The translations under genes were made by a program, and so were the position numbers. Positions 1 to 44,462 of a DNA stretch of 64,000 nt are shown here, piece after piece. The notes beneath the pieces are model-generated. The model worked only from the letters and a program-made list of their open reading frames with translations, had not been told where the DNA came from and did not search any database. This stretch comes from Isurus oxyrinchus (lineage: Eukaryota). The stretch covers positions 105,090,001-105,154,000 of the forward strand of contig JANJGN010000011.1 of NCBI GenBank assembly GCA_026770705.1, given 5' to 3'. Numbering within the stretch: the stretch's first letter is position 1; the number at the start of each line of letters is the position of its first letter.

Positions 1-289
1 TAGTACTTTAAAATAAATCCAAATTTTCTGCATCTTCACCTGGCCACCACATATTGCTCCTTGCAAGCATTTTGAATTTGGAAATTCTAGGAAGCATGCT
101 ATGCAACACAGTTAAGAATGGTTCCCTTCCTTGTGAAGGAATGACGACTTGTGCACCCCATAATAGGATACCATCCTGACTACTCAATTCATTCCTTCAA
201 ATGAAGAATGGCTTCAATTCTTTCAGGGCTGGTTCCTGGGACCATCCTCTCAATACTTGGTCTCGTACTCTAGACAAGCCTGGATCATG

Positions 290-457
290 ATAAAAACAAA
301 AAAACTGCGGATGCTGGAAATCCAAAACAAAAACAGAATTACCTGGAAAAACTCAGCAGGTCTGGCAGCATCGGCGGAGAAGAAAAGAGTTGACGTTTCG
401 AGTCCTCATGACCCTTCGACAGAACTTGATTTCGAGTCCAAGAAAGAGTTGAAATAT
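290..457 (-). mobile_element. Short Penelope-like 3'-end insertion with hammerhead motif
   Basis: Same sequence as the termini of the Penelope copies at 25229 and 59822. 14-bp TSD AAGCCTGGATCATG at 276-289 and 458-471. Interrupts Gypsy pol. Confidence 0.9.
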
Positions 458-3246
458 AAGCCTGGATCATGGTTCATCCAGTTTCTTATTTATTTTATGC
501 AGACTGGCGAAGAATCCAGAAAATTCATCGCTAATATTATCTCTCGGGGAGTTGGAGCATGTTCAATGCTCTCCTGCAAAAGAAGGTGACTTAGGGCATC
601 TTCATAGGCTACATGCATCCCTGGTCTGTGCATAAAAGTATATTCATATGCTGATAAAATCAAAGCCCATCTTTGAATTCATGTGGAAGCTATGGGAGGG
701 ATAGCTTTCTCTTCGCTAAATTGACCCAAGAGCGGTTTGTCATCAGATACTTTGGTAAACTGTCAGCCATGTACATACCGATGGAATTTTCTAACTCCAA
801 ACTAATTGATTATCCTCCTTACCAATTTGTGAATAACCCTTCTCGGCATAGATAGAGTTCTGGATACATAGCCTATTGGCCTTTCTGAACCGTCGTCCAT
901 CTTGTGAGATAGTACTACTCCATGTGATAGAGGGTGGCATCACAAGTTAGCACCAATTCTTTTCTCAGGTTGTAGTGTACTAACAATTTCGAAGAGTGCA
1001 AGAGCTGTTTAAGTTTTGTGAAAGCTTCTTTTTGAGATGACTTCCAAGACCAACATTGTTTTCTCTTTAATAATGAGTGTAGAGGGGCTAGGGTCATTGA
1101 AAAGTTGAATAGGAATTGACCATAGTAATTTGCCATACCCAAGAATGACTTGAGCTCTGAGACATTTGTAAGCAAGGGTGCCTCCTTAATAGCTTTAACC
1201 GTTTCTTCTACTGGGTGTAACCCTTGGGCATCCACCCGGTGGCCCAAGTATAAGACTTCACTTGCCTGAAAGGTACACTTATCCTTTTTCAGGTGCACCC
1301 CTGCTTCCAAGAATCATTTTAAGACTTCCAAGCTAGCCAAGTGTTCCACTTCTGTTAACCCAGTTATTAGGACATCATCCAGGTAGACCATGACCTGAGG
1401 TAGTCCATGCAGGTACTCCATCATCCTCTGGAAAATCGTGCAGGCTGAAGAAACACCAAAAGGCAGGCACACGTATTGATACAACTCTTTGCGTGTATTT
1501 ATGGTTACAAATCCTTTAGATGTGTCAGCCAGTTCCAGCTGCTGATATGCATGACTCATATCCAATTTAGTGTAAGTTCACCCTCCTGCTAATTTGGCAT
1601 ACAGATTCTCGATCCTGGGGATAGAGTACTTGTCCAACTTGGCAACCTTGTTTACTGTTAACTTGTAATCCCCACAGATATGGATGGTCTGATCCAGTTT
1701 CAAGGTAGGGACTATGGGTACTGCCCATTCCGAAAATTGAACTGGCTGAATAATAACGAGCTTCTCTAAACGGTTTAATTCAGTGTCAACCTTCTCTCTC
1801 AAGGCATAAGGCACAGATCTGGCTTTAAAAAGTCAACCTGCTTCAAAGTCAACATAGATCTTAGCCTGCAGGTTCTTGATTTTCCCTAGCTCTTCTCAAA
1901 AGAGGAACTTGTCATATTTCTTTAGCAGCTTTGGCAATCCTCCAGCTCTCAGCTGGAAAATTTCAAACCAATTTAGTTGAATTTATTTTAGCCAACCATG
2001 AACTAGAAGGCTTGGTCCTTCACCTTCCCTACAATCACAGGGAGCTGTACTGTTTGGTGCTTGTTATAAACAGGCACAATGATAATACCTTTCACTTTTA
2101 TGGCTTCACCAATATACATTTTCAATTTAGCTGAAGTCTGCTCCATTTTTCAATTGTTGAGTACCCTTGTTTAAATATTTCAATGTGTGCTACCCCTCTA
2201 CAGTGGTTGATGCACCGATATCAACTTGCATAATCAAAAGTTTTCCATTGACCTGCAGTGTAACAGTGATTATCTCTGTTTTCCCTGCTTTCACATTAAA
2301 TAGAGAATAAACAACAGAGTTAGTGGTTTCTGGTTCTTCTACATTATGTACTTCAATCAGTTTAGCTTGCTGCCTGGGAGTCTGCCTCAATCTTGCTTTA
2401 CATTGCTTCAGTATGTGCCATCTTTTAGGATAGTAATGGCACTCCATCTCTTTAAAATGACAAGTTTCAGGGATATGGTTACTTCCACATTGGTAACAAT
2501 TCATTTTCAGATTTGCTGCTGAGTTGTTTCCTGTATTTTTTTTAATTGTCTCCTGCTTTGCGGCTGACTCCCTGGTTTTTGTGCCACGCCCGGCAGTCTG
2601 TTCCTGCCCCAACTTGAAAATGGTGACATTTCGTACACCCTGTAAGGACTGTGAATCCCACTTGGCACTTTCCATCACACGCGCTATTTCCAATGCTCTT
2701 TTAAAATCGATATTTACTTCAGCTAATAACCATCGTTGAATGGCATCATCGTGCACTCTGCAGACCAAATGATTCCTTAACATATTGTTTAGGATCTCCC
2801 TGAAGTCACAATGTTCAGTTATATGTTTCAATTTCAGTACATATGTTGCTATGGTCGCCCCTGGGGACTCCTACTCTCAAATTAAATTTGAACCTCTGCA
2901 TGATTACAGAGGGTTTGGGTTGAAAATGACCTTTTACGAGGTCTACTAGTTCACTGAAGATCTTTGAATCGGGAGTGTTCAGGGCCGTCAAGCTACGGAT
3001 TAAATTATAAGTTTTATTCCCACAGATACTTAGGAGAATTGCTTTCCTTTTTTCCTCCACTGTTATTTCGTTTGTTTGGAAAAAGATACCGAGGTGTTCT
3101 ATAGATTGACACCAATCCTCTGTGGATGAATCAAAGCAGTTAATCCTGCCAAAAGATGGCATACCTGGTGAGTATATTTTCCCTTTCTTCTGTTTAAAAC
3201 AAGATACTTACATTAACTGGGCAAGGGACAGCACCGGAACAAATTT

Positions 3247-3260
3247 ATCCTCGTCACCAA
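3247..3260 (-). other. Primer-binding site TGGTGACGAGGAT (tRNA-Ser-like)
   Basis: Lies just inside the LTR end ...TAACA. Matches the complement of the tRNA-Ser(GCT) 3' end (TGGCGACGAGGAT) with one CpG transition. Confidence 0.7.
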
Positions 3261-4189
3261 TTGTTATAGACTTGATTATCCAGACAGGTTTCTCATAAGT
3301 GAAGTTTATTTACAGGGCTTCAGCAGCAGTTACATGCTTCCATCAAGATCCACAACTAGTCACAAACTCCACCCTTAAGGTTCCCCGTGCTTCGGGCTAA
3401 TTCGTTCACACTGTCACTTGATACTACAGAGTATAATAAGTTTTAAAACCACAGTCACTACATACCTTATAGCTACAGTTACGATATTCCTTAAAGCTAC
3501 AGTCACACACTCCCTGTGTCTTCCCGCTCACTCTGACACAGCACTCACTTTCTTCACTCAAGGTTACTGTATCATTAGAAGTGAAGTTTCAGTTCCCTGG
3601 GAATGTCTTATTCTGCGGACATGGACAACAGCTGGGTCTGGCCTGCCATGAGGCTGAGTGAGATCTCCTCACACCTATTCTGGACACATTACTGACAGAG
3701 AGTCCCTCCTGTTCTTTCATTTTCTTTTCCTTCTCCTTGGCCTCCCGAAAGATGTTACCACAAATTGCTCAGTGCGGCTGAAGAATGTCTGCACGGTGAC
3801 CAATGGGAATGGCCAGAATAACTGCTTCAGTTCCTCCATTCACAGGTTCTCTCTCTCCCACCCTTGCTGCTCCTCCAATCATAGATTCTGTTTCTGGAGT
3901 GGCAGGAGCAGGGCAGAGAGAATCCATGGTTGTAGGAGCTACAGCAATGGCTAACTTGAGCACTGAATGCACAATTTTGGCTTGTCTCATTATTTCCCCA
4001 ATAGATTGCATTCAGTGAACCTTAACAACTTCAAGGGAAGATAACATGAGAGTTTCAAAAGCCCTCAGCACTACACTCACATTTGTTGATCTGTTCATGA
4101 ATTATAACTTGTTCATTTCTTTTTCAAGCTCCATTGCTCCGCAGGCCATACCATTAATTTAAATATTTAATTTTCTCACTAAAATGGCC

Positions 4190-20750: not shown

Positions 20751-21246
20751 TGGCAGAATTTTCCACTCATCGAGCAAGCGTCCTGACATCATCGCACATT
20801 CGCATGATATTTCTGTCAGCAGGCATACACAGGAATCAGCAGCATGCCCGCCGATAATTAAAAGGCCCATTAAGGCCATTAATAATCTAAATGAATTAAA
20901 GTTTTCGCTGCCCATCCCACCTTACGGTTGCCATAGTCACATGAGGGGACATGTGTTTTAACATCTTAAAATGCCTTATTTTTAATTTTTCACATCTTCA
21001 TCTCCCTGAGGCAGCTCTGTGCCTCAAGGAGCTTTTCTTGTGTACACGTGTACGTATGCATGAAGTTCCCCACTCACCTTCCTCCCCCCCAACACAGACA
21101 GGGCTTAGTGCTGCAGCACACATTTCACTCTGGGCGGGCCTTAATTGGCCCACCAGCATGAAATCACAGTGGCTGCCCAATCACGGCAGCAGTCAGCTTC
21201 CTGACCTCCCCCGCCGAGCCCGCCCAACAAGGGCAAAATTCTGCCC
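20751..21246. mobile_element. Harbinger-type MITE
   Basis: TIRs TGGCAGAATTTT / AAAATTCTGCCC. Body homologous to 32700-33374 and 36740-37362. Confidence 0.8.
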
Positions 21247-24745: not shown

Positions 24746-25228
24746 ATCAGTTGATTTCACTTGGTCATAAAACTTCAGGACGTCACCTTAAAATGCTTAC
24801 ATTTCCTGCTTATTGTGATCTTGTGTCAGGGCACAAACTTGTAAGACAACGAGATCAAGAGGTTATTCGATGATCTTAATCATGATCATTCTTTGTGAAT
24901 TTGGCCAATAATCTTGAAATGATATCTTGTATCTTATGGTTGGTTACTAGGATTCCTACTCCATTCCTATATTTCTCACCTCCCAAGAAATAAAGCACAC
25001 GATTCTTGTTCCCTTCTAATCAGATTCTCGCTAACTTATTTTTGCAAGTCCTAGTAAGTCAATACAGTGTCTATCCATTACATGTGTAAAGTTTACCAAG
25101 CTTTTCCGCCTGATATGAAGTCCTCATATTCCATGTTCCTATTCTCAAGAAGCTATCTCTTCCATTGAGTGTAATGGGCTGAGAAGCTGACCTCGCTATT
25201 GAGTTTAGGTCAACTTCACCATAAATTT

Positions 25229-26366: not shown

Positions 26367-29316
26367 TCACCATAAATTTGTTGGTTACTTTGTTGAACAA
26401 GGGCTTCTCTTTCACTGTCACTATTTACAACAGAATCAGTTGCAGAGGGCCCAAAGTCTTCTGTATCTCCTATTCTTCGACGATGATTTTCTATGACTAA
26501 CTATGGGGCTTATATTGTGTGAGGTCCCAGAGTCTTCATGGGTGACTGGCCGCATTACCTTACTAAGCATTATGACCATGCCCTTGGGTGTGTCACACAC
26601 CCTGCTGGTTTCCACCTTCTAAGCCATTGTCCAACTAATTTGTTGGAACTAACTTTGACCTCTTTTGCTATTCCCAGACTTCCTGCATATTAGAAGGCAA
26701 TTATGCTTCCACAGCACACCAGCTGAAGCTGCTGGCCCCCCCATTTAGTTTTCCCAACTGCTTAGTCAAGAATCCTGGGAATGACAGCTGATGCGCACAA
26801 CCAGCTACTTGGAGTCATAAGTGAGAGTCTACGGTGGATGAAAAGCGAAGTGCGTTGTTTAATGTTAGTTTTTTCCTTAATATGCACATTGACTACTCAC
26901 GGAACACAGAACTGAAGGCGCATCATCTAACAATATGGTACCATTTTCAGTCTCAGCTTTGATGATAAAAGATTTTCACTGCCACTGAAAATTGTTGGTA
27001 AATTCTTTCACTATTGTCTGGATGCTGCCATCTTCTGTGGCGTTTATACTGTTCATATTACTGAGCATGCCTCTTGAGGGGGAAAAAAATGTAGAATTAT
27101 TAGAGAGACCTTAAAGAAGCACAGTATTTCATATTTGTAATGGCAGCTCTAGCATTCCCAGTTGTCTATATGACAACACCAAAACAGGAGCTGGCTATTT
27201 TAAGAAATAAGTCAGTCCGAGAACTCTTTAGCGCAGAGACTGCTCCATCTCGACACTGCCAAAAAAAACAAGCAACTGTATTGGTGGGTGGGGGAGGGAG
27301 GACAAAATAGGAGCTTAGACCTGCACTGCACCAAAATGTATTTGTGATTGTGAAATGAAGCACAAATTAAATTTTGCTTTGATGCAGATTGAATTTTTTT
27401 TCCCTATCCCCATCCATCTCAGACCACGGAAAAGTCATTACCAACCCCGTTCCACAAATCCGGTATAAAATGAATTTGAATTGAGGCCACCCACACATAT
27501 ATAAAAAACATAATTCCAAGAACCCTTTATCTTGAGTTATGATTTTTTTTGTTTGTTGCGTCTGTTTCATTGAATGTTTTAATTCTATTTATTTGCTGAC
27601 CCCCTTTTTCTGCCCCCCAGTGATACCCATTGAACTGATTTGTCAGACTCCACATAAGAAAAAGAACTTTAAAAATATTAGAAAACTAATAGCCACCTCC
27701 CACGCCATTTGAATATTAGGAATGAATAGCGGAAGCAAGCTGTAGCTTTTACTATGCATGAATCATCTACTTTCTTATTTACACACATGATTAAAATTTT
27801 ATTTTACTCTACAATGTCCAGTAACTTCCCCCTCAAATAATGTAATTTATTTAGACTCATTTAAACAGGGACAACATGAAGTACCAAATTCAACTCTGTA
27901 AGTAAACAGATAGAATACACATGCCAAGCTGAGAAACATTTAGTTTTTAACAGCTACTTTTCCAGTATGCTAACGATGCTGGGTCAGTTATTTGTATTAG
28001 TCTGCTGGACTCAGTGTGCAAGTCCTGTGTAGTCCTCTTTCCCATGTTCTTGTAGTTCAAAAATGTCATTGCTGCAGTTCTTGACTTTGTGTGATGTTGT
28101 AAAATGGGTGAAAGTGAATCCATAGTTCTTTTTCGAGTAGTTTTTAAAATTTATTCTTTCAGGGAATGTGGTTGTCATTGACAAAGCCAGTATTTCATAG
28201 GGGTGATTGAATCCCCCTGGACTGAAACTTGAGGAAGGGAAGAGTAGGAGTGGCTAGAATCTGTAATTATAAATAGGGAGTTACAGAAATGCAATACAAA
28301 TAGTTAATGTCAAAGTTTCATATTATTGTTAGAAAGTAGATAGCATACTTGACAGAGGTGTAGTGTAAGGGTTAACACTTAGGATATGCTCATGTATGAT
28401 GTAAATGATTGTAGTAATTGTGGTTTTATTTAGTGTGTAATGTACCTTTAAGAATAATACTTGTTAGGCAAGTTCACATGATCTGTAGTAACCAATAGGA
28501 GAGTACCGCGGGCTCCCTCAGCAGTCAGTGTAGCGATGGAGTTAGAGTTGAAAGCACACATGTAGTTGCTGCTGAGTATATTGTAACTAAACGTAATGTT
28601 TCCAACCAAGAAGTGTGTGCAGATCAACTCTGTTACTGATAGTACAACACGGCCACCTTACTACAAACTGGTGATGGGGATAAATCAGATCCAATACTGT
28701 ACCTCGCCCAGCTATTGTGAGTGTTTAAGATAATTAAAAATAAAGGAAGATATACTCACCAGGTATGCAGTCGCTTTGAGTTGGGGAAAGTACAGTCCGG
28801 ATGGCTGAGAGGTCTCCCGGAGCACTCCCGGCATTTGGAGGATGTGCCAAAGTTGCTAGGCTCCTGAGTGGCAATTCACAGGATAGGTGAGTAGGGTAGG
28901 AGGGGAGGGGAAGAATCTGCGCTTGCATTGTGGGGTAGATGGCAGCCCTGCAGACTCAGTGGGTTGGAGAGGCTGGCACAGTTATCAAGTTAAAGGAAGG
29001 AGGGCGGTCAGAGCAGAAAGCAATGCTGCAGTTTTAAATTTAAAAAAAAAGAGGCCATGAAGAATCACCCAGAGAGGGGAGAAGATTTCACTGCTGTGAT
29101 TTTTTTCTGAACAAGAATGAGGTTTTGCAAAGTTGAAAGCAAAGAAGGCCCGGAGGGATCCTGCCAAAACTCGAAAAGCATGGGAAACACAGCACAGAAA
29201 GCTGACAGCTGCAGAGACAGCCCAAGTTAAATAAAGGTGACTGCTCTAAAAGTGGCAATACATTTAAATTGGTAAATACAAGAAAAATGGCTATGGGCAG
29301 AAAATTAGAAGAAACC

Positions 29317-29937
29317 CCAGAGAGAGGGCAGCTCTGTGGAAGGCAACACGAGAACTCAGACAGCGGGCAACTCTGTGGAAGAAAGCAAGTGGGCCCAGAG
29401 AGAGGGCACTCTGCAGAAGGCAACCAGGGGCCCCCGATGGAGGGCAACTCTGTTGAAGGCAGTCAGGTTCTCCCAATGGAGAGCAACTCTGTAGAAGGCA
29501 ACTAGGGACCCCCGAGACAGGGCAACTCTGCAGAAAGCAACCAGGGACCCCCGAGACAGGGCAACTCTGCAGAAAGCAACCAGGGACCCCCGAGACAGGG
29601 CAACTCTACAGAAAGCAACCAGGGACCCCCGAGACAGGGCAACTCTGCAGAAAGCAACAAGGGACCCCCGAGGGAGGGCAACTCTGCAGAAGGCAACTAG
29701 GGACCCCCGAGACAGGGCAACTCTGCAGAAAGCAACCAGGGACCCCCGAGACAGGGCAACTCTGCAGAAAGCAACAAGGGACCTCCGAGACAGGGCAACT
29801 CTGCAGAAAGCAACAAGGGACCTCCGAGGGAGGGCAACTCTGCAGAAGGCAACTAGGGACTTCCGAGACAGGGCCACTCTGCGGAAAGCAACAAGGGGCC
29901 CCCGAGGGAGGGCAACTCTGCAGAAGGCAACCAGAGA
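29317..29937 (+). repeat. 39-bp tandem array, about 16 units
   Basis: Unit CCAGGGACCCCCGAGACAGGGCAACTCTGCAGAAAGCAA, read as QGPPRQGNSAESN on +. Confidence 0.95.
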
Positions 29938-29954
29938 CCGTCAAGGGAGGTAAA

Positions 29955-30400
29955 CAAGCAATTAAACAGTTTAAAGAACAGTTGATTGTCCTTCAAAATC
30001 ATATACAAAAGGAATGCATAACCACTCATCAGGCTGTCTCAAACAGTGGAATGGAAGCACAACAGAAGAAACATGAAGAGGGCTCAAGAGAAGCCCTGGG
30101 AGTTGAGTATAGCTGAATCCAGCCAGGAGACAGGCGTTTGGAAAAACTCCAGGGCAGTGCCAGCTCAGTGAAGCTAGCTGTCTACCAAAGAGCTGAAGAA
30201 CCCGCAAAATGAAACCAAAGAGGCTCTGGAAGCAAAAGTTTCAGAATTTCCCAAGAAGCAGCAGAAAATGAAATTTTGGGAGATTCAGCCACTGAGCTCA
30301 GACAATTTGAGCTTGCATAGAGAAGTCTGGCCAATAGTGAAGTCAGAAAGAAGGACGAGATTAAAGTCTGCACTAGAAAGAAGAAGGTATGTCGAATGAA
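29955..30400 (+). pseudogene. Coiled-coil cargo fragment homologous to 42850-43490
   Basis: Manual translations NHIQKECITTHQ..MEAQQKKHEE, KELKNPQNETKEALEAKV and VWPIVKSERRTRLKSALERRR align with the other copy. Confidence 0.7.
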
Positions 30401-32699
30401 GATACACAAATAGTAATAGGGCCTCCAACCGGTTATGGAGAAAGTAAGAGCCATAAGAGAGGCACCTGCGCCAAAGAATGCCTCAGAGCTCAATCTTTCC
30501 TAGGAATGATTAACTATTATGGGTGGTTCTTATCTAATTTGTCTACAGTGCTGGCCCCCCTGCATTCTTTACTCAACATTGGTCTGGGTAGCCGCCCCAG
30601 AAATAAGCTTTCATAAAAGTGAAACAATTGTTGCACTCATCCAATCTGTTAGTGCATTATGATCAGACGAAAGAATTGGTGCTGATGTAACACATCTCCC
30701 TACAGAGCGGGGGCAGTGCTCTCTCATAGGATGGATGACGGCATAGAACGGCCAATAGATTACTTATCACCACAGCGGTAAAGGGATACTCGCAAATAGA
30801 AAAAGAAGGCTTGTCTATCAACTTTGGTGTCAAGAAATTTCACCAGTACATGCCATTTTACCATCATTTCAGACCACAAACCATTGCTAGGATTGTTTAG
30901 TGAGGACAAGGCTATATACTCAGCCTTAGCAAGAATACAACGATGGGCCTTAGTTACACAAATACGCTTTCGTACATAGGCCTGGCAATCACATCGCAAA
31001 CAGCGATGCCCTTAGTCATTTACCTTTACAAGAAAATGATGAGCACCTCCTAGTTCCACAGGAACTTGTTTAACTGTCAAATTTCTTAGATTCCTCACCA
31101 GTATGTGCTCGACAGATCAGAGACTGGACAAGTCGGGACCCAGTCCTATCTCAAGTATGAGAACAAGGGCTACATGTTTGGTCACAGGAGCCCACACCTG
31201 ACTTAATGAAACCATACTTCAACAGAAGACATGAAATAATCAGCCAGGATAGCATCTTATTCTGGAGCGCATGAGTGATAGTTCCTCCAAAGGCAAGGGA
31301 GCCGCTTTTAATTGAACTACAAAGTGCGTATCCAGGAATTTCCTGAATGAAGACCATAGCACGCAGCTATCTGATGGCCTGGGATGGATGGCGAAATAAA
31401 GGGTTTAGTAAAGCACTGTGTGCAACTGCAAATGTTGCCACTGATGGCTCCATTACATCCATGGGAGTGGCCAGGTAGACCCTGGGTGCAGTTACACATT
31501 GACTACGTTCAACCTTTCCTGGGAACAATGTTTCTGCTCATTGTCAATGCCCATTCAAAATGGTTGGATTTATTTGAGGTGAAGTCACCAACGCCGGGCA
31601 CTACAATTGAGAAACTATGTAAGAGTTTTGCCATTCACGAACTTCCATAAGTAGTTGTTTCTGATAACGGCACGGCACTTACTAGTGCTCAGTTTCAATG
31701 GGTTATCAGCCCCAACAGTATCACTGATGTGAAAACTGCACCATACCTGAATACCTGACTTCCTCAAACAGACTGGCCAAAAGGGCAGTTCAAACATTCA
31801 AGGCAGGCATGAAAAAGCTAACTGGTGATTCCTTGGCAACCAAGCTAGCACGTTTTCTTTTTCATTACAGGACCACTCCTCATCACAACAACAGGTGGCA
31901 CACCTGCTGAGATATTGTTGAAATGCCATCTCAGGACAAGATTGAGCTTAATAATGCCAAATTTAGAGGGAAAGGTGGAAAGGAGACAGGGAAGCCAGAA
32001 AAACTAGACACGACTGGCATAGTTGCAAGACGAAATATACTGTGGAAGTGTCAGTATACATGAAGAACTGCAGGGAAGGATCAAAGTGGTTACTGGGTGA
32101 AATAAGTGGGGTGACTGGAACTCTATCTTACTATGTGGAGATGGAAGGCTGGATCATCCATAAACAGGTGGACCATTTAAGGAAGAGAGAGACAAGTCAT
32201 CAAGACTTGGTTGTACCAGTGATCACAACCGGGTCTGCGTTTCCTGTTGAGGATACTCAAACCAGAACTGTTTCTGTAAGAGTTGAGGATACCGAACTGC
32301 AATTGCCCACCAAAGCAATTGATGTTCAGGCAACTCCAGGAAAGGAGGTACCTGACAAAGAGTCTGAAGTTGTGGAGCTGTGATGTTCCACACATACCAG
32401 GAAACCACCTAAAAGACTGAACTTGTAAATTCATTACCCAGTGTAAATATTATGTTGTCTTGAAAAAATGTACTTGTAAATATAGTATGCATAGCTGAGC
32501 TAAAGGGGGAGGAATGTAGTAATTATGATTTTATTTAGTGAGTAATTTATCTTTAAGAATAATACTTGTTAAGAAAATCACATGATCTGTAGTAACCAAT
32601 AGGAGAGTAACACTGGCTACCTCAGCAGTCAGTGTAGAGATGAATTTGAAGATGAAAGCACACATGTAGTTGCTGCTGAGTATATTGTAAATAAACTTA

Positions 32700-33374
32700 G
32701 GGAAGGATTTTCCACTAAGCGTGCAGGCACGCACCGACACGCCCAAGTGTGAAACAACGTGCGATGACGTCAGGTGAGCGTCCCAACATCACTGCGAACT
32801 CGTGAGATATTTCGGTCAGCGAGCACTCATGAGAGTCGGCAGCGGGACTGCTGACAATTAAAATGCCTATTAAGGTCATTACTCAATTAATTCACCTGCA
32901 TTTTTCACAGCCTGTCCCAGGTGGGCGAATCAGCCATGTGGCCTTTGGATTTTGAGGATATCTCATCCATAGCGGGATGAGGTTTTTGTAATTACATTTT
33001 TTTTAAATGTTTAGGTAGAGTTTTTAAAATCTAAATGTTAAGGTGAGTGAGTCCGCTGTTTTTTTCCAGAATTTTAAAAACTTCATTGATTGGTTTAAAA
33101 TACTTCACTCCCTGAGGCAGCCCTCTGCCTTCAGGGAGCTTTCATTGCACGCTCTCCCGCACCTGTGCTGACTTCAGTGCTCGCCCTACCCCCACCACCC
33201 ACCTACCCCCCCCCCCCCCCCCCTCCCCCCACTATCCACCTTGGCAGCGCTGAGCCGTTAATTGACCAGCCAGCTTGAAATCACAGTCGGGAGCCAATCG
33301 TGGGCAGCAGATCATTTCCTGGCCATTCCCAGGCCCGCCCGCCATGCTCGCTCTACGACCTGAAAATCCTGCCC
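32700..33374. mobile_element. Harbinger-type MITE inside the Gypsy 3' LTR
   Basis: TIRs GGGAAGGATTTTC / GAAAATCCTGCCC and TSD TTA. The 5' LTR shows the empty site. Confidence 0.92.
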
Positions 33375-33591
33375 TTAATGTTTCCACCCAAGAAGTGTCT
33401 GTGGATCAACTCTATCATTTACAGTACAACTGGGCCACCTTACAACAGTGGTGTACCACTGGCATCAGTCAGTCATGCATTAGACTCTCGTCAGAGAGGT
33501 TGGGATCATTGCTGAAGTGCAATGTGCCTACTTTGTAAGCTGTTTAGATGCAGTGCTAATAAACAAGCATTAAGCAGATACAAAAATATGT

Positions 33592-33738
33592 ATGGATTCA
33601 CCTAGTTCTGTTGAAGGGTCATGAGGACTTGAAACGTCAACTCTTTTCTTCTCCGCCGATGCTGTCAGACCTGCTGAGTTTTTCCAGGTAATTCTGTTTT
33701 TGTTTTGGATTTCCAGCATCCGCAGTTTTTTTGTTTTT
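33592..33738 (+). mobile_element. Short Penelope-like 3'-end insertion with hammerhead motif
   Basis: 14-bp TSD ATACAAAAATATGT at 33578-33591 and 33739-33752. Carries CTGTTGA...GAAACGTC. Confidence 0.9.
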
Positions 33739-34939
33739 ATACAAAAATATGTCTACCGTCTGCCTAAGAACCAAACCCTACTCCTAGAGTCCATGATAGA
33801 AGAACACACCTCACAGCAATCTCTAAGTGTTAGTATTGCTCCCATTTGTTATATATTTATTTAGAATATGTACTAGTGGGTTAATAGATTGTATTTTGAA
33901 TTTTGTTTTTCTGATAAATAGAACATTGACGTATCACTGTTTGTATTATTTTTCCTTCTTTTGTCTTGCTCTGTGCTGAGGTGTTTGAGGCAGCCAACAA
34001 GCACAATAAAATGATCTGTCGTAACTGGTGAAAGCCTGCCCTCTACAGATCTCAATGCATTGAAAGTGTCCCTGATGGTTAATGTGGCTTAGATATTTTC
34101 TTTAGATGAAGGATATTCAAAGAGACAATTAAATGTGGAGACATACTATAGGCTCTCCCAGAAAGGTAATCATATAATCTGGATATCTTAATGTCAATTG
34201 GAAATTAGCATAAATCTACCTGATATCAAGGTTTCCTGGATTAGAATCACAGCAAAGAAATTGGACAGTGCCTGTAAGTGGGCATAGGCATCACAGTGCA
34301 GAATTGAACTGCACCCATTTCTTTTGACTTTTTTAGGCTGATTTACATGATAGTTGCGTGCAGCCAGCACAAAACATGCTGCTGAGTGGCTGCATGCCTC
34401 AGCCAGGGGCCCAGCAAGTTTGTGCAATAATAGCACCACTTAAAGTTAGCCTGTACCTCTTAAAGGGGAGGTGTTTCTTATAGGAGAAAATGATGGAACT
34501 GGTTTCAGAAGAGAGTGCAAGCAAGAAGAATTCTGAGTTGAGGTGCAACAGCGCTGAGAGCATGTTGCAAGGTTTTTAGACATTAGCGCTCGCTGCCTTG
34601 TGGAGGAGGTAGACAGCAGGAAGAGTGACTCTCTATGCACAGGTGACCAGGAGTTTAAAGTGAACAGAGTTTAATGTAGGCTTTCCAGCTGGCTGGAGAG
34701 CTGGCGAGAACCCCACGTCGCCTCTTTTCAGGAAGGCCTGCCAAATTAATTGCCTCTTCATTGCTCAGAGGGGCCACTGGGGAGGCAGTGGCTACTGCTG
34801 GTAATGCACCTGCTTGATGCCCAGGATTGCCAAGAGACCAGGGCCCACAGGTGAGTGATGGCAGGAGGGGAATCACAGGAAGGGGGTTGCGGGGAGGGGA
34901 ACGTGTGTCAGCATCGAGGGCAGGGAGATAGCTCTCAGC

Positions 34940-35135
34940 AGACACAGAAGGCTGTGGAGGCCAGGTCATTGAGTGTATTTAAGACCGATAGGTTCTTGAT
35001 TGGTAAGGGGATCAAAGGTTACGGGGAGAAGGCGGGAGAATGGGGTTGAGAAACTTATCAGCCATGATTGAATGGTGGAGCAGACTCGATGGGCCGAATG
35101 GCCTAATTTCTGCTCCTATGTCTTATGGTCTTATG
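34940..35135 (+). mobile_element. CR1 3' end
   Basis: QKAVEARSLSVFK..DRFL..KGIKGYG and tail TCTGCTCCTATGTCTTATGGTCTTATGG. Confidence 0.85.
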
Positions 35136-36392
35136 GCCCATCCCTTCATCCAAATGTCAGGACCCTTGATCAGACACTGTGCACCTTTGAATGAGAGTCA
35201 ACACCCACCCCCAACACAAAAGCACTGAAAGCCACAAGCAACTCTGACAGGGTTTTCCTTTTGAACTTCCCACATGGTGAATTGTCCTCCCTCCACTGGG
35301 TGAATATCAGCATGGGAAAGAGGAAGCCCTTAAATGGGTATTAATTTCTCATTTAAAGGCCTCATTTGGGGGGATAGGGAGGCCATCCACAAGTCTTCCC
35401 AACCTGGACTTAATGCCCCCTACCACCAAACTCACCACGAGGGAGTGCATTAAATCCCACCCATGTCTGAAGGCTGTTGGAGCAGATAGTTATTACGGTC
35501 AATATCAACAGTGCATCCCTGAATGCAATGCTGCAAGAAGTTCAATGACCATTCACAAATGGCCAAGTCATCAAATTCGCCTTCACGTGCTACATCTCAC
35601 AAACTGGACCATTAGCCTCACACACTGCTCAGTCAGCATACCTCCAAAATTCACCTACCAACTATCTCTACCAATCAGGACTCAGACCTAACCCCACACG
35701 CTGTTGCAAGCCTCACCCCCACATCCCACAGCTTGCACACAATGCCAGCTATTCAACCATGGCAACCACATCACCCATACACACTGCACCACTCTTGCAG
35801 GATAAGGAGGCACATAAACGGAGGCACAAGCATCGATCAGCTAAGTATGGCTGCATGTCTTTATCCCTCATGGAGAAGATGGTACTTGACGTCATTGGCG
35901 TGATCATGAATTAAGGTCGTGGCCAAAGGCTGGGCTGAAACCATTGAAGACAACTGTATGCTCATATCTAATCCTCCTACTCATATCCCACCTCATTTTA
36001 CAATCCCTCCAAATTTCCAAGCTGCAGATGGTGCAAGAATGCACCTTTTGCATTTCCCCACCAACTCCCTTCTTGTCACTGCACCTTTGTGACATTCTCT
36101 TTTAAGATATCCATGAACAGCCACCTACACAGGAGATATCATAGAGGAAGAGGTGAAACTGAAACAGCAAGAAGACAGTGATGAAGAAGAAACACTGTTA
36201 CCTGTTCAGATACTGACACCACGCATCCTTTATAGGATACTTTAGATGCAGGTTCTGCAGGTGGTGAGACAACGGGCAAGGGTGAGCTGCATGTGGGCAT
36301 GGCACAAGTGCAGCTCAGCTGCCACTTCACAGGAGGCTGAGGTCGCAGATGAGTTTCTGCTGCAGTGGACTCAGATGAGAACTCGGATGGTA

Positions 36393-36625
36393 TGTGTGGT
36401 AAAGTGGAGTATATGTACCTTTAAGAGAATGAAAATGGACTAACCATGTGACAGTACTGACTAACTACTGTACAGCGCAGGCTACTGGTTAACTGTAAGT
36501 CTACAGCTGGAGGTGGTTGTGGGAGCACTCAAGGATTTAGTGCTCTGTCTTCTGTTGCAATAAACAATCACAGTTTATTCTTATGTCAGTCTCTCTCCGT
36601 TATTGATAATGAGCACCAACTAACA
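36393..36625 (+). mobile_element. Small solo LTR (probable)
   Basis: TG...AACA ends, AATAAA, and GTACCTTTAAGA shared with the LTR at 28410. Confidence 0.5.
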
Positions 36626-36739
36626 AGTGAATATGAAGGCATGCAATTCGAGCTAACTTGACCAGTGAACTCAAAGGCTCAAGATATAAAAATATGGCCT
36701 GCAGAAAAAGGCTGATAGGCATGTACATAGAAATACTTG

Positions 36740-37362
36740 GGGCAGGATTTTACGGTCGTCAGGCGGACATGGCAGGCCGGCCAACCCAGGAGCGGCCAAG
36801 AAACTGTCCGCCACCCGCGATCGGCCCCCAACTGCGATTTCATGCTGGCTAGCCAATTAACAGCCAGCCCGTGTGAAAGACGCGCTGAACGGTTCAGCGC
36901 TGCCGGGGTTGGGGGCATGAGGAACATGAGCACAAAAGTCTGTGCATGCATGGGGGAGCGTGCACTGAAAGCTCCCCGAGGGAGCTGCCTCAGGGAGTTG
37001 AAGAATATTAAAAGCAAAAAGAAAGCTTTTAAAAATGTTAAAAACATGTCCCAACATAGAACTCTGTAACAATCGCAGAAACATTATAAAAATTATGGTT
37101 AAAAATGTTTATTTTTTAATTACTGTTGGAAATCTCATCCTGCCTGTGGATGAGGTTTCCAAAAAAATCCAAAGGCCATCTGGCCGATTTGTCCACCCAC
37201 CAACCATATGATTGGACAGACAGCAAACAATTGCTTTTAATTATTTGATTAAGGGCCTTAACAGGCCTCTTAATTGTCCGCCGGCATGCTGCCGACTCTC
37301 GCGTGCTTTTACGCCCGATCGGGCCAGGCACGCACCCACCTTCGGGACGTAAATTTCTGCCC
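36740..37362. mobile_element. Harbinger-type MITE
   Basis: TIRs GGGCAGGATTTTAC / GTAAATTTCTGCCC and TSD TTG. Confidence 0.9.
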
Positions 37363-38779
37363 TTGATGTATTAGTAGGCCGGTCAATGTCCAAGAGGATA
37401 AGGTGTGTGGGGATTTTCGATGATGGGGAATTGGATTGGTTGATTTTATTATAGTCAGCTTGTTCACCGTAGACAGCCCAGCCAGAAAGGGGATACGATT
37501 TTTGCCTCTTCCCTTTCTTTTCCTCCTTCTCCTCCTCATCAGCTAATTGCCTGGTAACCAGGGTTGTGCCTGCATTGTGGTAAGGTTGTGCACCACAATG
37601 AATCTTGACCACTCTCTGCCAAGTTGTGCTGGGCTCCCCCCAAGCGCCCCAGGCAAATGAAGCATTGTCTATGCACCTCAATTGTCTGCTCAATCACACA
37701 TTGTGTAGCAGCATAGATTTCAATACATGCATGCTGCCCATGTGTGCATTGATTGAGCAAGAGTCATGGGCTAGATGACCATGGCACCCTGCAACATGGG
37801 ATAGTCTGCAATCCTGCAGATTCATGCATTCATTCTCCAGCTTCCCTCTGGCAAGATGGAATGAAATCTATTTAGTTCTGCTGAATGTGGACCATCAGTG
37901 ACTTCCCTTATGCAACAGTGGATGGCAAACTGGGAGATGAAGCAAATATCACCTGGAATATCACCTCTAGCTTGGAAGGACCCACACGCATAAAAGTTCA
38001 TAGTCACAAACATTTTCCCAATCACAGGCAATACTGTTCTCGGCAGTTCTGTCTGTGAAGGTGGCAGATTTTATTGAGAACATCTTTGGCGAAGTGGGGA
38101 CATATGATATATTGTTCCTCACTGAGCCTCAGGTAGAATGTTCCTTGAACACTCTGGGTGGATATGGCTTTCTGCTGAGATCCCTTTACCCCCTCTCCCC
38201 CCTCCCTCTGCCAGCAGCTTGTCCTGTTATCGATCACCTCTGCTCATTCTTCTTGTCATGCTGCAGACCAAGGCAGATGTAAACAATTGCACCCATGCCC
38301 AGTAGCAAGTTGTTTGTACTGAACCCTTTAGCACATACTGCACTGTTCCCTGTTGATTTTAGCAACTTTAAACAACTCTAGAAACCACCAAATGCTTTTA
38401 CAATTACAGCAAGAGCCAGGAGAAATAAATCAGCAAGCAACCTTAAGTAGTTGATGATCCATTTAAATGGAGTTAGGGTGCCCTTTGTGCTGCTGAGCAC
38501 AGTTCAGTTGTGCAAGGGTAAGGATGAGCATTAGCTGGAGGGCTAAGCTCCTAAATGGCAGCACTGACGTCAAATCAACTTTTTGACATCACAATCCAAC
38601 TACGCTGCACTATTCTGGTGAACACTCCCTGCATGTGAACTAACAACCTTACAAAAATAGGGTTCTACCCAGCTGGTAACTGAAATATGTTCTCACAGGT
38701 CATGGATGCCATTTTGTAGGTAAAATGTCACTTACTGTGCTGAAAAACCTGCCCTAAGGAACCAAATTTCAGAGCAATA

Positions 38780-39160
38780 GAATCATATAGCACAGAAGGT
38801 AGCCATTCGACAGATCGTACTTATATTGGTTCATTGAAAGAGCTACTCAATTAGTGCCACTCCATCGTTATTTCCCCATGGTGCTACAATTTTCTCATTT
38901 TCAAATATATATCCAATTCCTTATCTGGAAGTTATTATTGAATCAGCTCCCACCACTCTTTCAGGCTCTGTGTTCTAGATCGTAACAATTTATTGCATAA
39001 AAACATCTTCCTCATTTTCTACCTCTTTTCCTAGTAATCTTAACTCTGGTTATTGACCCACCTGTCAGTCAAAAACGTTTCTTCCACCTACTCCATCACG
39101 ACCCTTCAAAATTTTGAACACCTCTCTTTTATCTGCCCTTCTCCTTCTCTGCTCTATAGT
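38780..39160 (-). mobile_element. CR1 3' fragment
   Basis: Homologous to 13640-14030. Confidence 0.7.
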
Positions 39161-39212
39161 ACTCAGTTGGCCTGTAGAATGCAAATTGGAAACCAGACAG
39201 TTTTCTAACAAG

Positions 39213-39442
39213 AACAAAAAGTGCTGGAAAAACTCAGCAGGTCTGACAGCATCTGGGGAGAGAAAGACAGAGTTACCATTTCGAGTCCATAAGGCTCTTC
39301 AGATTCTGAAGAAGAGTCATACGGACTCGGAACGTTAACTCTGTCTTTCTTTCCCCAGATGCTGTCAGAGCTGCTGTGTTTTTCCAGCACTTTTTGTTTT
39401 TGTTTCAGATTTCCAACTTCAGCAGTATTTTGCCTTTATCTT
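39213..39442. mobile_element. Palindromic Penelope-end mini-element (older subfamily)
   Basis: Inverted arms around about 39303, with CTGAAGAAGAGTCATACGGACTC. 14-bp TSD AGTTTTCTAACAAG at 39199-39212 and 39443-39456. Confidence 0.88.
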
Positions 39443-40579
39443 AGTTTTCTAACAAGTCTCAGAGCTCTAAGAATTAACTAATGTGACCTAAACATTGAAT
39501 GGAGTGTTTCCTTTCAGCTGCGTGCTTAGTATTGGGAAAATAAATGGCAGAGGGACCTAACTAAAGGTGATATGTATGAAGGTGACCTCCAAAATTATCA
39601 GGTTAAAAATATATAATGGCATCACAGTAACAACCCTCTCCCAAGCACCCAAAAAAATCACCAGGCACCAGGAAGGTGGATTGTCCTAATTTTAAATTTC
39701 CGAGATTCTGCCACTTTTAGAACAATATCATTCACTTTATTCAAGACGTGTGATATAAACGATCTTTGTTGGATTGTGTTCATTTTTATATAGTAGATCG
39801 CAAAACATCCATCATGGTATTCCTTGGATCACATAATAAGACTAATTTCACAATCTAACTCTCCCAATGGGGGAGCAGGGGGAGCAACGCTCTCAGAAAG
39901 TGCAAAGCAGCAAATTGCAGGAATCCGGCCTGCTGGTTTTAAAGATGAATGGGCGCAAAATCTATTGGCTGACCTGCCTGCCTTTTCCCCTGAACAAACT
40001 CCCTGTCAGTGCGAATCTCAACCGGAAGATGAAATCATGGCATCATCCCCAACATGAAAAAGAGGCCTCACCTGTATTTGAATGCAACATTATCCTTCTA
40101 TTAATCAGGTGCATAAGACATTGTAGGAGTCAACAAATACACAGAAGACCTTAATGGTTCCTCTGTTTCTGTTATGAGATGTTGAAAAACTGTTATAATG
40201 AGATACCCTCCTGAGCAAGAGTGGCAAGCTGAAAAATTACCTCAGAGATTATTGACTGATTCCCACAGTTTTGTCAGCAGGTGCTCCTGCTATAGAAGCT
40301 GAGCTCTTCCCTAGTGCCTGTCAGAATTCATAACATGCAAAGTCTCTTGATAAATCTTAAAAAGGTCATGCTTTGTAATTAAAATCATGGGACTTGCTTT
40401 TATGGGACACCAGCAGGCAGAAAAGCAGGCAGGTGGATCTGTAAAGCAGGATGCATGGCATCGATTATGTGCCCGCTGCTGGTCTGCCTGTTATGCCATG
40501 ATTTTACCAGCAAAGCATGAGGCATCAGATGGGTCGCCCACCCATGGCCCAATTGAGGCCCTAAAGTACAGAGTCAAGG

Positions 40580-40850
40580 ATTTTATACAATGTTGCAGCT
40601 GAAGCTGAACCAGTGACTTGTAAAGGTTTAGCATGATTTCCATGTTTTTGTATTCAATCCCCTTATTTACAAAGCCAGAGAATGCCTTATCAGCTTGCAT
40701 GACCACTTTCAAAGATTTATGTACTCCAGGTTTTGCATGCCCTTTAGAATAGTACCACTTAGATTATGCTGCGATTCTATGGTATTTCTCCCAGAGTGCA
40801 TGACTTTACACTTATCCATAATAAATTGCATCCTTCGTGTGTGTGCCCTT
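40580..40850 (-). mobile_element. CR1 fragment
   Basis: GFVNKGIEYKNMEIMLNLYKSLV remnant. Confidence 0.7.
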
Positions 40851-41649
40851 GGAAAAATTGGCAATTTTATTTTGTTGTAAGTTTTGCTGTTTGTGTTAAA
40901 TTCTATTTCCTTGCTGATTAAACTATTGTTGCCTCTTCATCCTACTGATGTCATTTATTATTTGCAATTGCTTCATTTTCTCACATTTCAAATATAACTT
41001 TAAAGCATACCAGAAAGTTGGCTGCCTCCAAATATCCCTTTTGAATGGGTTGAGCGAAAAGAAGCAAGCGTTACAGAGGCTTGGTATATACATATTTTGA
41101 TATCTATAACCCATCAAAGGAATGAATTTCCAAGCTCTTTGTCTTTCTAAACTTTTGTGTGCATACCATTGATCGTCAGTTAAGTCGAAAGATTAACCCA
41201 CTTTTCTCATAAATGTGTGTATATCCCAAGTTGTTGATGCCAACAGATCTTGATGTTCTGATTTGAAATTTAAATTCTGGACTTCGTAGAATCATTAAAT
41301 AACTTGGCTAATCTAGATATTGACCATATATTGAACGCTCACTAATTTTCCTCTCAGCAATAGTCATTTAGACAATGACAAAACAGTTCATCCAAATTAG
41401 ACCAGAGAGAAAGATTTTCTAGTTATTTGTTAACTCCAGCCAAAATCTCAAGTGATGAAAGATAATAAATATTATTGGAAAAAGTGCAGCCCATACAACA
41501 TATGTTAGAATTTCAAGCAGAAATTCATATAGTGAAGAATGCCAATTATGTGATTAATACATATTTTTAATTTTAGAAATCCCCTATGAAACTGGATGGC
41601 AAATAACATGCATTAATAGGAATTTAGGCATAGATGAAGCAATGGACAT

Positions 41650-41999
41650 ACAAACATACAATTTGGGAGCAGGAGTTGGCCATTCAGCCCCTCGAGACTG
41701 CTCCGCCATTCAGTAAGATCATGGCTGATCTGATTGTGGCCTCAACTCCACATTCTGCCATCTCCAGTAACCTTTGACTCCCTTGTTAGTTAAGAATCTA
41801 TTTACCTCGCCTTAAAAGTATTGATTGAACCTGCCTCCTTGTCTATTCTCTGGGGAAGAGAGTTTCAAATATTCACGACCCTCTGAGAGAAAATATTTCT
41901 TCTCATATCCTTCTTAAATGGGAGACCATTTATTTTTAAACTGCACCGCCCACCCCCTGGTTCTAATCTCTCCTACATAGGGAAACATCCTTTCGGCAT
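41650..41999 (-). mobile_element. CR1 3' end
   Basis: GGAGCAGGAGTTGGCCATTCAGCCCCTCGAG..., the reverse complement of a CR1 tail like 47780-48110. Confidence 0.8.
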
Positions 42000-44462
42000 T
42001 GTTATAAAGTTGATCTTCCAGGCAAGTTCTCTTAGTAGATACATTTAGCTTTATTTAGAATACAGCAGCAGCAACTATATGCGTGTATCAAACTCTATAA
42101 CTAAAGAAGTACTCTCCTTCTAGAGGTTTCCTGCACTGCTAACTCATTTGTTTACATAGATCAAGTGATCTTACAACAAAATATTATTCTTAAAGCTATG
42201 GTCCTACATTTATCTGAACTATAATTACTATATTCCTCCCCCTCTAATTTTCCTGGACGTTTTGTATTTACTAGGATATTTATCTCGTGACATTACAATA
42301 TTCAGACACAGGTCATGAAATTACAAGTTCAGCCTTTCAAGTGGTTTCCTGATCCGTGTGAAATGTCATAGTTCCACGACTTCCTATTCTTTGCAGGAAC
42401 CACATTCTCTGGAACCGTATTAACATCAGGCACCTCATTAGCCACAGGCTATTCAGTGTCTTCCACTCTGACAGAGACATAGGGTATGTCTATCCTTGAT
42501 TGAGCAACTTCAACAGCAACTACAGGTTCAGCAGTGGTTACAGGTGGAACATCATTTTGTCAGGGTATCTCCCTTCTCCTTAAATGATCCACATGCTTAC
42601 GGGTGATCCAGCCCTCCACTTCCATGTGGTACAACAATGGTCCGATCACAGAACTCAGCTTACCAGGTAACCACTTCGTCCTCCACTGAAATTCCTTACA
42701 TATGCTGCTTCTCCAACGGTAAATTGTCGCTCACGACTATGCAAATCATGAGTTGCTTTTTGTTCTCTTGACTTTTCTCCACGTTCCCCTCTAAATTGGG
42801 AAATATCAGGTTTAGTCTTGTTCGAAGGCAGTGCCTCATCAGTAATTTCTACCTGCCTTCTTCTTTCTACCACAGAATTTAGTCTTGGCCTTCTTTTTGA
42901 CTTCACTGTCGGCCAGACTGCGTTCAGGTCCAATCTCAACTTGTCTTAGTTCAGTAGAAAAGCTACCGATGACTTCATTACCTATTATCATCTTGAAAAG
43001 TTCTATGACTTTTGGCTTTCAAAGCTCATTAACTTCATTCAACTGATTCTTCAGCTCTTCTGTCTCCTTGTATCTGTTGGCTTCCTCCTAGAACTTTGAA
43101 CATTGCGGTGCCTTTTCTGCCAACTGGTTCTTCAGTTTGTTCAGAGTGACATCAAATTCTTCCTGTTTCTCTTTGTAATGTTCCAAAGGCACAAACTTTG
43201 ACCTGAGGGATACTCGTAGTATGTGAAGATTTTTCAACAGGTTTTCCTTTTCTTTGTGAAGCTCACTCGCTTTATCTTGAATTCTGTAATTCAGTGGAGT
43301 CTCCTTAAGTTTCTTCTGCTGTTTTTCCATGTCATTGCTTAAGACAGTCTTCATTTCTTCAGGTTGCTGAATGCTTACACACTCCTTTTTCATCCTGTTG
43401 CAGTCCTTGGACTCTCCAGGCTCTTTCTGAAACACATTGCCTTTTTCCCTTTTCCAACTCAAGAGCTCTTTCAGCTTCCTTTTGAAATCTCACTGGCCAA
43501 TCAAAATTAATTTCCCTCAACCAATTTCAACCTCGAAAGCTCAGTCCTCTACCTTCTAATACCATCACAGGTAGATGTGCAGTTTGGTGTTTGTAATGAA
43601 CTGTTACTGTGGTGATACTTTTTACCTGGATTTCCTCACCTGTGTACATTTTCAACTTGGCAGATGTTTGTTTCAAATTTAATTGTTGACCACCTTTATT
43701 TAAATATCTGAAAGTGTGTTCTCCTATTATAGTGGTAGAAGCACCCATGTCTACCTCAATTTTTAATGGTTTACCATTCACTTGCACTGTGACAATGATT
43801 GACTCTGCCTTCCCATCTTTCATGTTGAATAATGAATAAATGTCAGAATTGGTTGTTTCTGGATCTTCTACACTACACACTTCAATGGGCTTCGATTTTT
43901 GCCTGGAAGCCTGTTTAAATCTCACTTTGCAATGTTTCAATATGTGTCCACTTCTCTGACAAAAATAACACTCTACCTTTTTAAATTGCCAATCGTTAGG
44001 AGTATGATTGTTGCCACATCGATGAAAATTAGTTTTCGACTTTGCTGCTAAGGTGTTTCCTCTCAATTTTCGGTTAGCGGGGGCTGTTTCCCACTTTGCG
44101 GCGGAGTACTAGCTTTTCGTGCCACTTTCAGCTGACTGTTCCCACCCAACTAGAACAGCACCATTTTGCTCCCCTTGAATCGCTGATGAATCCCTTACAG
44201 CACTTTCCATCCCAAGCATTATTTCTAATGCTTTCTTAAAATCAAGATTCAGTTCAGCCAGCAATCTTCACTGAATAGCATCCTCCTGTACATCACATAC
44301 CAAATGATCCCTGAGCATGTCATTCAGGGTTTCATCGAAATCACAATATTCTGTTAGTTGTTTTACTTTTGCCACGTAGGTGGCAATGGTCTCTCCAGGG
44401 GCTCTATTCTGTGAATTGTACCTGAATCTGTGCATTGTGACTGAGGGCTTGGGTTGGAAATA
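42000..44462 (-). mobile_element. Defective Gypsy element: gag-PR-[coiled-coil cargo]-integrase C-term-PPT-3' LTR
   Basis: Gag (FQPKPSV, MLRDHLVC) and protease (VDMGAS) similar to the element at 1-3510. Integrase tail RHCLRTRLNL. PPT 42233-42247 and LTR 42000-42232. RT, RNase H and integrase core absent. Confidence 0.9.
42850..43490 (-). pseudogene. Coiled-coil cargo resembling UACA/RAI14/ANKRD24-family coiled coil
   Basis: ORF 43088-43462 has heptad character, with KECVSIQQPEEMK and KFVPLEHYKEKQEEFDVTLNKLKNQLAEK motifs. The family resemblance is from memory, not from a search. Confidence 0.55.

Follow-up and report, generated by a model that had tools for sequence, protein, structure and literature searches.

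The window, a 64,000-nucleotide stretch of the Isurus oxyrinchus genome, holds two defective LTR elements, A and B, which share a module of host-derived cargo, and a cargo-free relative, C. Their features are as follows.

1..3510 (−), element C, cargo-free relative, gag-PR-RT-RH-IN order; runs 1.4 kb further left of the window
28410..28665 (+), A 5′ LTR (TGT...ACA), matching the two 3′ LTR halves at 88% and 83%
28666..28768 (+), A primer-binding region with a remnant of the gag start (about 100 nt), 74% to C 3262-3159
29297..29950 (+), A 39-nt tandem array that continues into the UACA piece, from self-matches and natural ORFs of copies
29947..30080 (+), A UACA piece 1 (host L073:4639 to about 4787), 78% to the host exon
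30081..30187 (+), A insert in place of the central UACA part; piece 2 out of frame, frame +1 across the insert in 9/12 copies
30188..30396 (+), A UACA piece 2 (host from 5489) and start of the D-family linker, matching the host exon, B and the D linker
30440..32430 (+), A end of RT, RNase H and integrase (decayed), 64-67% to C
32515..33447 (+), A 3′ LTR, preceded by a polypurine tract and interrupted at 32700-33373 by a later insertion
42000..42232 (−), B 3′ LTR, with matches to the two LTRs of sister copies
42233..42846 (−), B integrase tail and polypurine tract, 74% to the C integrase tail
42847..43055 (−), B UACA piece 2 (host 5489-5582), across a 442-nt deletion, and start of the D-family linker, from host and D matches
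43047..43393 (−), B UACA piece 1 (host L073:4695-5047), 76% over 353 nt, E 3e-67
43394..43499 (−), B linker joining protease to UACA in frame, from natural read-through ORFs in copies
43500..44461 (−), B gag, zinc knuckle and aspartic protease (Asp_protease_2 over cut-off), 70% to C

Element A thus runs from a 5′ LTR through the gag start, unassigned DNA, the 39-nt array (its copy number differs among copies), the module, the RT end, RNase H and integrase to the split 3′ LTR. The window copy of B is without the 5′ end of gag and the 5′ LTR, the family match stopping at 44461. The full extent of C is 4.9 kb, with an LTR pair 84.5% alike; its domain order was read from DNA matches to parts of A and B.

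All DNA words and peptides quoted in the original prediction were found in the window. The homology it described between 29955-30400 (+) and 42850-43490 (−) is real, albeit confined to two blocks rather than covering the whole interval. The first pairs 30188-30396 (+) with 43059-42847 (−) at 72% over 215 nt (score 164; shuffle maximum 42-56), and the second, of about 80 nt, pairs 30007-30080 with 43389-43301 (score 56; shuffle maximum 37; 200 shuffles each). Between them, B holds about 240 nt of extra UACA sequence and A an unrelated insert, and the first ~55 nt of UACA piece 1 in A are missing from B. As proposed, the module lies in sense orientation in both elements and in differing architectures, preceding the end of RT-RNase H-integrase in A and sitting between protease and integrase tail in B. 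Its absence from the element at 1-3510 was likewise borne out, and extends to the continuation of C left of the window.

Host genes as the source of the cargo

What A and B share is a fragment of host UACA, taken from its large coiled-coil exon, so that the host-gene capture postulated earlier now has a named source. This exon is intact elsewhere in the shark genome (C25, 911-aa open frame), the cargo ORF matches UACA of six sharks at 46-58%, and the mapped UACA pieces all fall within L073:4050-5600. The ORF of the window copy of B alone found no homologue in 400 candidates; the match to UACA came with a longer natural copy. The module is, in turn, a sub-piece of a three-gene cargo carried by a third family, D, which is longer and consists of UACA, a linker, ninein and spliced TPR. 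The three host pieces have common outer edges. The ninein source exon was located at C19, and the TPR identity follows from Pfam PF25481 over cut-off together with host exons at C16 that are joined in the copies. Five TPR introns are removed, with 10-25 copies per junction, and the TPR cargo was therefore captured as mRNA. The UACA and ninein pieces each lie inside one exon, without a splice junction; capture from RNA is established for TPR only.

No host source was found for the D linker, the D segment preceding UACA, the B linker, the A insert or the ~290-codon tail of a fourth family, G. Atlas searches returned generic coiled-coil matches only, a PDB search nothing below E 0.03, and Rfam 0 matches.

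Carrier families and probable movement of the cargo

At least four defective LTR retrotransposon families (A, B, D and G) carry host cargo in many copies. A and B are abundant, and both window elements are typical copies; G has a SCAN-type backbone with the same TPR start as D. All 150 scored candidates (150/150) match, and in the genome at least 150 matches exceed the Pfam TPR cut-off. In a search with D gag alone, 9/10 top loci carry cargo, compared with 0/10 loci with distant gag. The cargo is flanked on both sides by LTR-element sequence. For B, 29/29 other loci hold the module in the same LTR backbone, and the family A loci among those listed hold it within the backbone of the window copy, which contradicts an independent repeat. 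LTR pairs of A and B are 78-88% alike in most loci, with TG...CA ends and a polypurine tract, and among 15 A/B loci a perfect 5-bp target-site duplication was seen in 4, with 4/5 positions in 3 more. An orthologous B insertion in organism B found no support, the contig there spanning only 29 letters of the element side.

With these LTR features and the parental gag-PR-RT-RH-IN order seen through C, A and B are assigned as Ty3/Gypsy derivatives. Protease and, in sister copies of A, RT_RNaseH were assigned by Pfam over cut-off; integrase gave no Pfam match, and we take the segments so labelled in A, B and C to be integrase from familiar motifs. D gag relatives match B gag by tblastx, D gag and the C gag start gave no BLASTP match, and G gag is SCAN-like, just under cut-off. 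The labels Gmr1 and Mag are assumed here for the classification of D and G. Probing with the RT of C revealed no RT core in 38 B, 27 D and 10 G loci; matches in 3/30 A loci are read as flanking elements or the RT end. All four families are thus non-autonomous, yet present as dispersed copies; those studied are old and have decayed. The searches revealed no RT-bearing partner for D or G.

Several features link the cargo of different backbones. The 442-nt UACA deletion (5047-5489), located at a perfect 9-nt host repeat, is present in 37 B and 7 D copies, and A shares its right edge. A and B both hold the start of the D linker, their tail being shifted relative to it. In a tree of 51 rows and about 196 columns, A and B separate from D and host (100/100), with 12 derived sites common to A and B and 1 shared by A and D; the 7 deletion-bearing D copies form no clade. 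On this sequence comparison the module most likely passed from D to an ancestor of A and B; the reshuffling among backbones suggested at the outset gains support from the common breakpoints and the tree.

An origin at the DNA level, through insertion into the UACA and ninein genes followed by read-through or recombination, or through independent captures of UACA by A, B and D, would agree with the lack of splice junctions in the UACA and ninein pieces. Conversely, the mapped copies come without accompanying intron sequence, the adjoining TPR piece is spliced, and the common deletion, linker and derived sites exclude independent captures. We regard such an origin as very improbable.

Passage of the cargo among families by template switching is likely; the switching itself is suggested by the spliced TPR and by microhomology where cargo pieces join one another (9 nt at 5047/5489, overlaps of 7-20 nt), the backbone-cargo joints passing through linkers without a traced source. 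We hold it highly probable that UACA was captured from mRNA into the non-autonomous, putatively Gypsy-type family D and later reached the common ancestor of A and B, with mobilisation in trans. An mRNA of the UACA coiled-coil exon would have entered D by a template switch, D would also have gained ninein and spliced TPR, and further switches likely passed the module on. RT-bearing relatives would have mobilised the cargo elements. Once a coiled-coil piece was aboard, more coiled-coil mRNAs may have been captured preferentially and in frame, because purine-rich coiled-coil codons give abundant in-phase microhomology.

Reading frame and selection

A single frame from gag to cargo is kept at the column level in B, D and G, and broken in A. 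For the ORF and dN/dS check proposed earlier, this gives a single open frame in these three families and a broken one in A, with amino-acid constraint not significant. On balance, we favour the view that replication was better in lineages in which a single frame stayed open from gag almost to the 3′ end, with little amino-acid constraint; such an advantage could arise through RNA stability or translation-coupled packaging. A sequencing run guessed to be RNA gave only short, low-depth pieces.

A neutral role, in which the cargo fills length between cis-signals and open frames result incidentally from in-phase microhomology and from the short time spent on replicating lineages, departs from our preferred account solely in the open-frame filter. 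In-frame joins were found in 13/18 recurrent non-splice classes, compared with 59-78% under the microhomology null; an excess of in-frame junctions was accordingly dropped as evidence for selection, not being above this control. The captured host segments contain 335 8-mer repeat pairs, of which 71% are in phase. A amplified though its module is out of frame, and amino-acid constraint is weak. Still, the 63 lineage substitutions include no stop, where 3.2 would be expected (P about 0.04), and in host-aligned blocks the sole small indel common to copies measures 3 nt, against 283 frameshifting indels among copies. Long single frames in three backbones likewise speak against pure filler, which we consider plausible at somewhat less than even likelihood. 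Within the cargo, the majority stop traces to independent decay of a CpG arginine codon. A second stop column lies in B gag at −882.

TPR belongs to the nuclear basket and ninein is centrosomal. A functional gag-coiled-coil fusion protein, in which the TPR, ninein and UACA coils would aid co-assembly with helper particles or nuclear access under protein-level selection, would account for why three independent captures all brought in long coiled coils, which in B, D and G lie in sense and share the frame of gag. The N/S of family versus host, 0.25-0.47 of the private-mutation ratio, points in this direction, but includes constraint on the host lineage, where 35/60 amino-acid differences fall. 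Similarly, variants common to 3-4 copies show an N/S of 1.74 vs 3.18 (p 0.002), but these low-frequency variants have stops at the private rate and are largely recurrent mutation, and frequency-class N/S was dropped as evidence for selection. When polarised on the lineage, N/S does not fall significantly below neutral, either for transitions (1.26 vs 1.61, p 0.20) or for transversions (4.2 vs 10.8, p 0.07). Moreover, the cargo is freely deleted and permuted among subfamilies, and A thrived with broken cargo. A protein-level function is therefore unlikely. Similarly doubtful is a long-lived relay, in which gag-fused host coiled-coil mRNAs, encoding nuclear-pore and centrosome scaffolds, were kept translatable by selection and swapped between distant Gypsy lineages for better packaging or nuclear access; if true, coiled coils of host origin would serve a function in a parasite-of-parasites of very high abundance. 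The evidence for selection is modest overall.

Relation to known systems

Acutely transforming retroviruses combine a defective genome, a host mRNA piece in frame with gag (gag-onc) and helper-dependent spread. The shark elements differ in that no env or infectivity was seen, the cargo has no shown activity, and the copies are decayed genomic fossils. Maize Bs1 is reportedly a non-autonomous LTR element in which several cellular gene pieces replace pol; unlike the shark families, it resides in a plant, is said to have a low copy number, and involves one backbone and no coiled-coil theme.

LTR-mediated retroposition in animals, with partial host mRNAs inside discontinuous LTR elements, has been described by Tan et al. 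2016 (PMC5131818). The cases in the excerpted text of that paper share with those in the shark sense orientation, frequent in-frame fusion, further copying rounds and, at some loci, several parental genes, and the TPR intron loss and LTR flanks match the retrocopies it describes. Microsimilarity at joints is a feature of those cases, and in the shark it is seen between cargo pieces. In the same excerpts the cases are single loci or few insertion sites (5 zebrafish, 4 chicken, 8 mouse), whereas the shark chimeras form abundant families, with the same cargo across backbones of unrelated gag. The paper also cites maize Bs1 (Elrouby and Bureau 2010). According to the excerpted account of bdelloid rotifer LTR retrotransposons (PMC5408684), extra ORFs are common to different retroelement types; there the captured ORF is added to ORF1/ORF2, while in the shark host fragments are joined to gag and stand in place of pol.

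A literature search, with subscription journals largely outside its scope, found no shark cargo LTR family, no relevant report linking UACA to a retrotransposon, no paper on UACA in sharks, and nothing relevant on ninein or Gypsy elements in shark genomes. The mechanism is published (Tan 2016); population scale, serial capture and backbone transfer, as read from these sequences, were not found in print. The scale of this copying route in the shark is unusually large. It turns a single-locus mechanism into a population-scale record, in which dated copies with nested deletions order captures and transfers, and the cargo families allow a test for selection that keeps defective LTR RNAs open-framed. 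For shark annotation it matters that cargo copies over the Pfam TPR cut-off can mimic gene-family expansion. Decayed copies of the UACA, ninein and TPR pieces already appear as “uncharacterized” RefSeq proteins in basking shark (P0008, P0009) and in a white-shark model (P0007).

A UACA-derived module in two window elements

Two cargo-bearing LTR elements and one cargo-free relative were compared:

28410-33447 (+): element A, cargo-bearing, retaining both LTRs, ~100 nt of the gag start, the RT end, RNase H and integrase
42000-44461 (-): element B, cargo-bearing, retaining gag, protease and an integrase tail; 5' LTR lost in the window copy
1-3510 (-): element C, with all domains and no cargo; 4.9 kb including the part left of the window

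The original prediction of differing A and B architectures and of a module missing from C agrees with this layout, C being cargo-free also in the part left of the window. The DNA words and peptides cited in that prediction are present in the sequence. The proposed homology between A and B is real and exceeds shuffled sequence, but is confined to two blocks rather than the whole interval. In the first, 30188-30396 aligns with 43059-42847 at 72% identity across 215 nt and scores 164, where shuffled sequence reached at most 42-56; in the second, 30007-30080 aligns with 43389-43301 and scores 56, against a shuffle maximum of 37. Separately, an insertion at 32700-33373, related to 36740-37300 and 20777-21224, interrupts the 3' LTR of A.

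The proposed host-gene capture can be given a name, as the source gene is UACA. The natural 233-aa ORF of a B copy matches UACA from six sharks (46-58%) and covers UACA residues ~901-1022 fused to ~1165-1212. The host exon is intact on contig C25, with a 911-aa open frame, adjoining exons present and 98.8% identity to the white-shark protein. This cargo also makes up two basking-shark proteins annotated as "uncharacterized", one of which includes the tail of B. Elements carrying host-gene pieces in this way resemble Bs1 and gag-onc fusions.

Genome-wide families and longer cargo

Searches of the 4.98 Gb genome returned 4763 (B module DNA), 3886 (A module DNA) and 11801 (protein) first-look candidates, which are not copy numbers; those scored (40, 40 and 150, respectively) matched. 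The anticipated LTR context was found at the loci fetched: the B backbone flanks the module on at least one side in 29/29 other B loci fetched, most with the complete LTR-gag-PR-module-IN tail-LTR layout, and the A layout is present at those A loci listed. LTR pairs mostly show 74-88% identity, and a perfect 5-bp target duplication was seen at 5/27 loci. In host-aligned codons, the median difference between a copy and the column majority is 6-9%, a divergence indicating that these bursts are old.

With UACA sequence absent from A and B as query, 146/150 scored candidates matched. Of the non-host loci, 17 were retrieved as 10-kb stretches; most carry another LTR backbone, D, which showed no similarity to the Gypsy parts in the window. 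The D cargo comprises UACA 4050-5600 (coordinates of the host exon locus) with variable deletions, a 91-nt linker for which no source was found, ~270 nt of the large ninein exon (host contig C19, 82% to Mustelus ninein) and TPR (Pfam PF25481, above cut-off). In the host (contig C16), introns of 1.2, 8.5, 0.75, 0.87 and 1.8 kb lie between the TPR exons; because the copies join these exons directly (10-25 copies per junction), TPR was captured from spliced mRNA. When 20 of 150 matches to D gag only were sampled, cargo was present in 9/10 closer and 0/10 more distant loci. In a D subfamily (L083, L091, L092) the cargo is permuted, with a UACA 5522-5600 piece and linker upstream of UACA 4115.

A fourth backbone, G, has a SCAN-like gag and carries the first three of D's TPR exons with an identical 5' edge (10/10 loci). 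Mag and Gmr1 are putative clade names for the backbones. After TPR, G continues in frame for ~290 codons (L120-L129, e.g. L125:3841-4500(-)). This tail matched 150/150 scored candidates when used as query; neither a Pfam match nor a host source was found for it, and it may represent a further captured gene. A fetched TPR region holds an antisense piece resembling A's insert (L118:1840-1942(-), 74%). In the white-shark MHC-class-I-like gene model P0007, a gag-like stretch runs straight into UACA cargo, a junction not found among the loci fetched here; it is probably a mis-annotated exon, and possibly exonisation.

The shark cargo families are real, and their large scale appears to be new. Tan et al. 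2016 (PMC5131818) describe this capture route in animals, multi-gene chimeras included; the route is alike, whereas their cases are single or few loci and the shark cargo is large-scale. No report of these families was found in the mainly open-access papers searched.

Descent, reading frame and mechanism

Copies of B (37) and D (7) join UACA 5047 to 5489 at a perfect 9-nt host repeat; A enters UACA at the same 5489 edge, and the tail common to A and B aligns with the start of D's linker. Across 131 sites, derived letters are common to A+B at 12, A+D at 1 and B+D at 0, with 1 in D only. In a tree built from the host plus 14 A, 14 B and 22 D copies (~196 columns, remaining A/B copies left out), A+B and D+host fall on opposite sides of a split with support 100/100. 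The shared edge, linker start, derived sites and tree support the predicted reshuffling among elements. D is also nearest to the host in silent divergence (0.12 versus 0.22-0.24). The module likely passed from the host into D and on to an A/B ancestor. Separate losses would have followed, in which 55 nt at the front disappeared from B and the centre was replaced in A. Against this simple picture, the 7 deletion-bearing D copies do not cluster together.

To assess frames, a column was scored as a stop column when a stop was its most frequent triplet. Across 22 B copies, a single frame of ~620 codons runs from gag through zinc knuckle and protease into cargo; it has two stop columns, and one of these is a CpG arginine codon in decay. 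Across 10 G copies, the frame stays open for ~700 codons, starting at the zinc knuckle and extending through TPR. For D, 15 copies place gag and UACA in one frame, and 20 copies show it continuing through ninein and TPR. In A (18 copies) the frame is broken. The in-frame joins (13/18 recurrent non-splice classes) carry no evidential weight, as they fall within the null of 59-78%. On polarised lineages, 63 substitutions produced 0 stops (3.2 expected, P ~0.04), and the only small indel common to copies is 3 nt, against 283 frameshifting indels among copies. Lineage N/S is below neutral, not significantly (p 0.20 and 0.07). On balance, it is slightly more probable than not that an open-frame filter acted on the cargo elements; these results do not establish a selected protein function.

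Most likely, the RT of a helper element would have switched between co-packaged RNAs, with the cargo elements presumably mobilised in trans. All three identified passengers (UACA, ninein, TPR) are coiled coils, and 71% of 335 8-mer pairs within captured segments are in phase. Purine-rich coiled-coil codons offer many short in-phase words common to passengers, which would explain both their coiled-coil nature and their in-frame landing with no function needed.

Other window elements

At 56045-57772(-) lies a remnant of another Gypsy-like gag-protease element, in which no cargo match was found. At 60316-63995, 11269-12550 and 25228-26400 lie non-LTR RT elements whose C-terminal region is endonuclease-like; we take them to be Penelope-like. 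Their ~140-nt ends are scattered and form palindromes at 12705-12914 and 39207-39404; an Rfam search found nothing. An inverted pair (61362-63993, 94.6%) lies among these elements. The segment 51246-54573 encodes a DDE_Tnp_4 transposase (E 1e-23) with a short ORF opposite, an arrangement that is presumably Harbinger-like.
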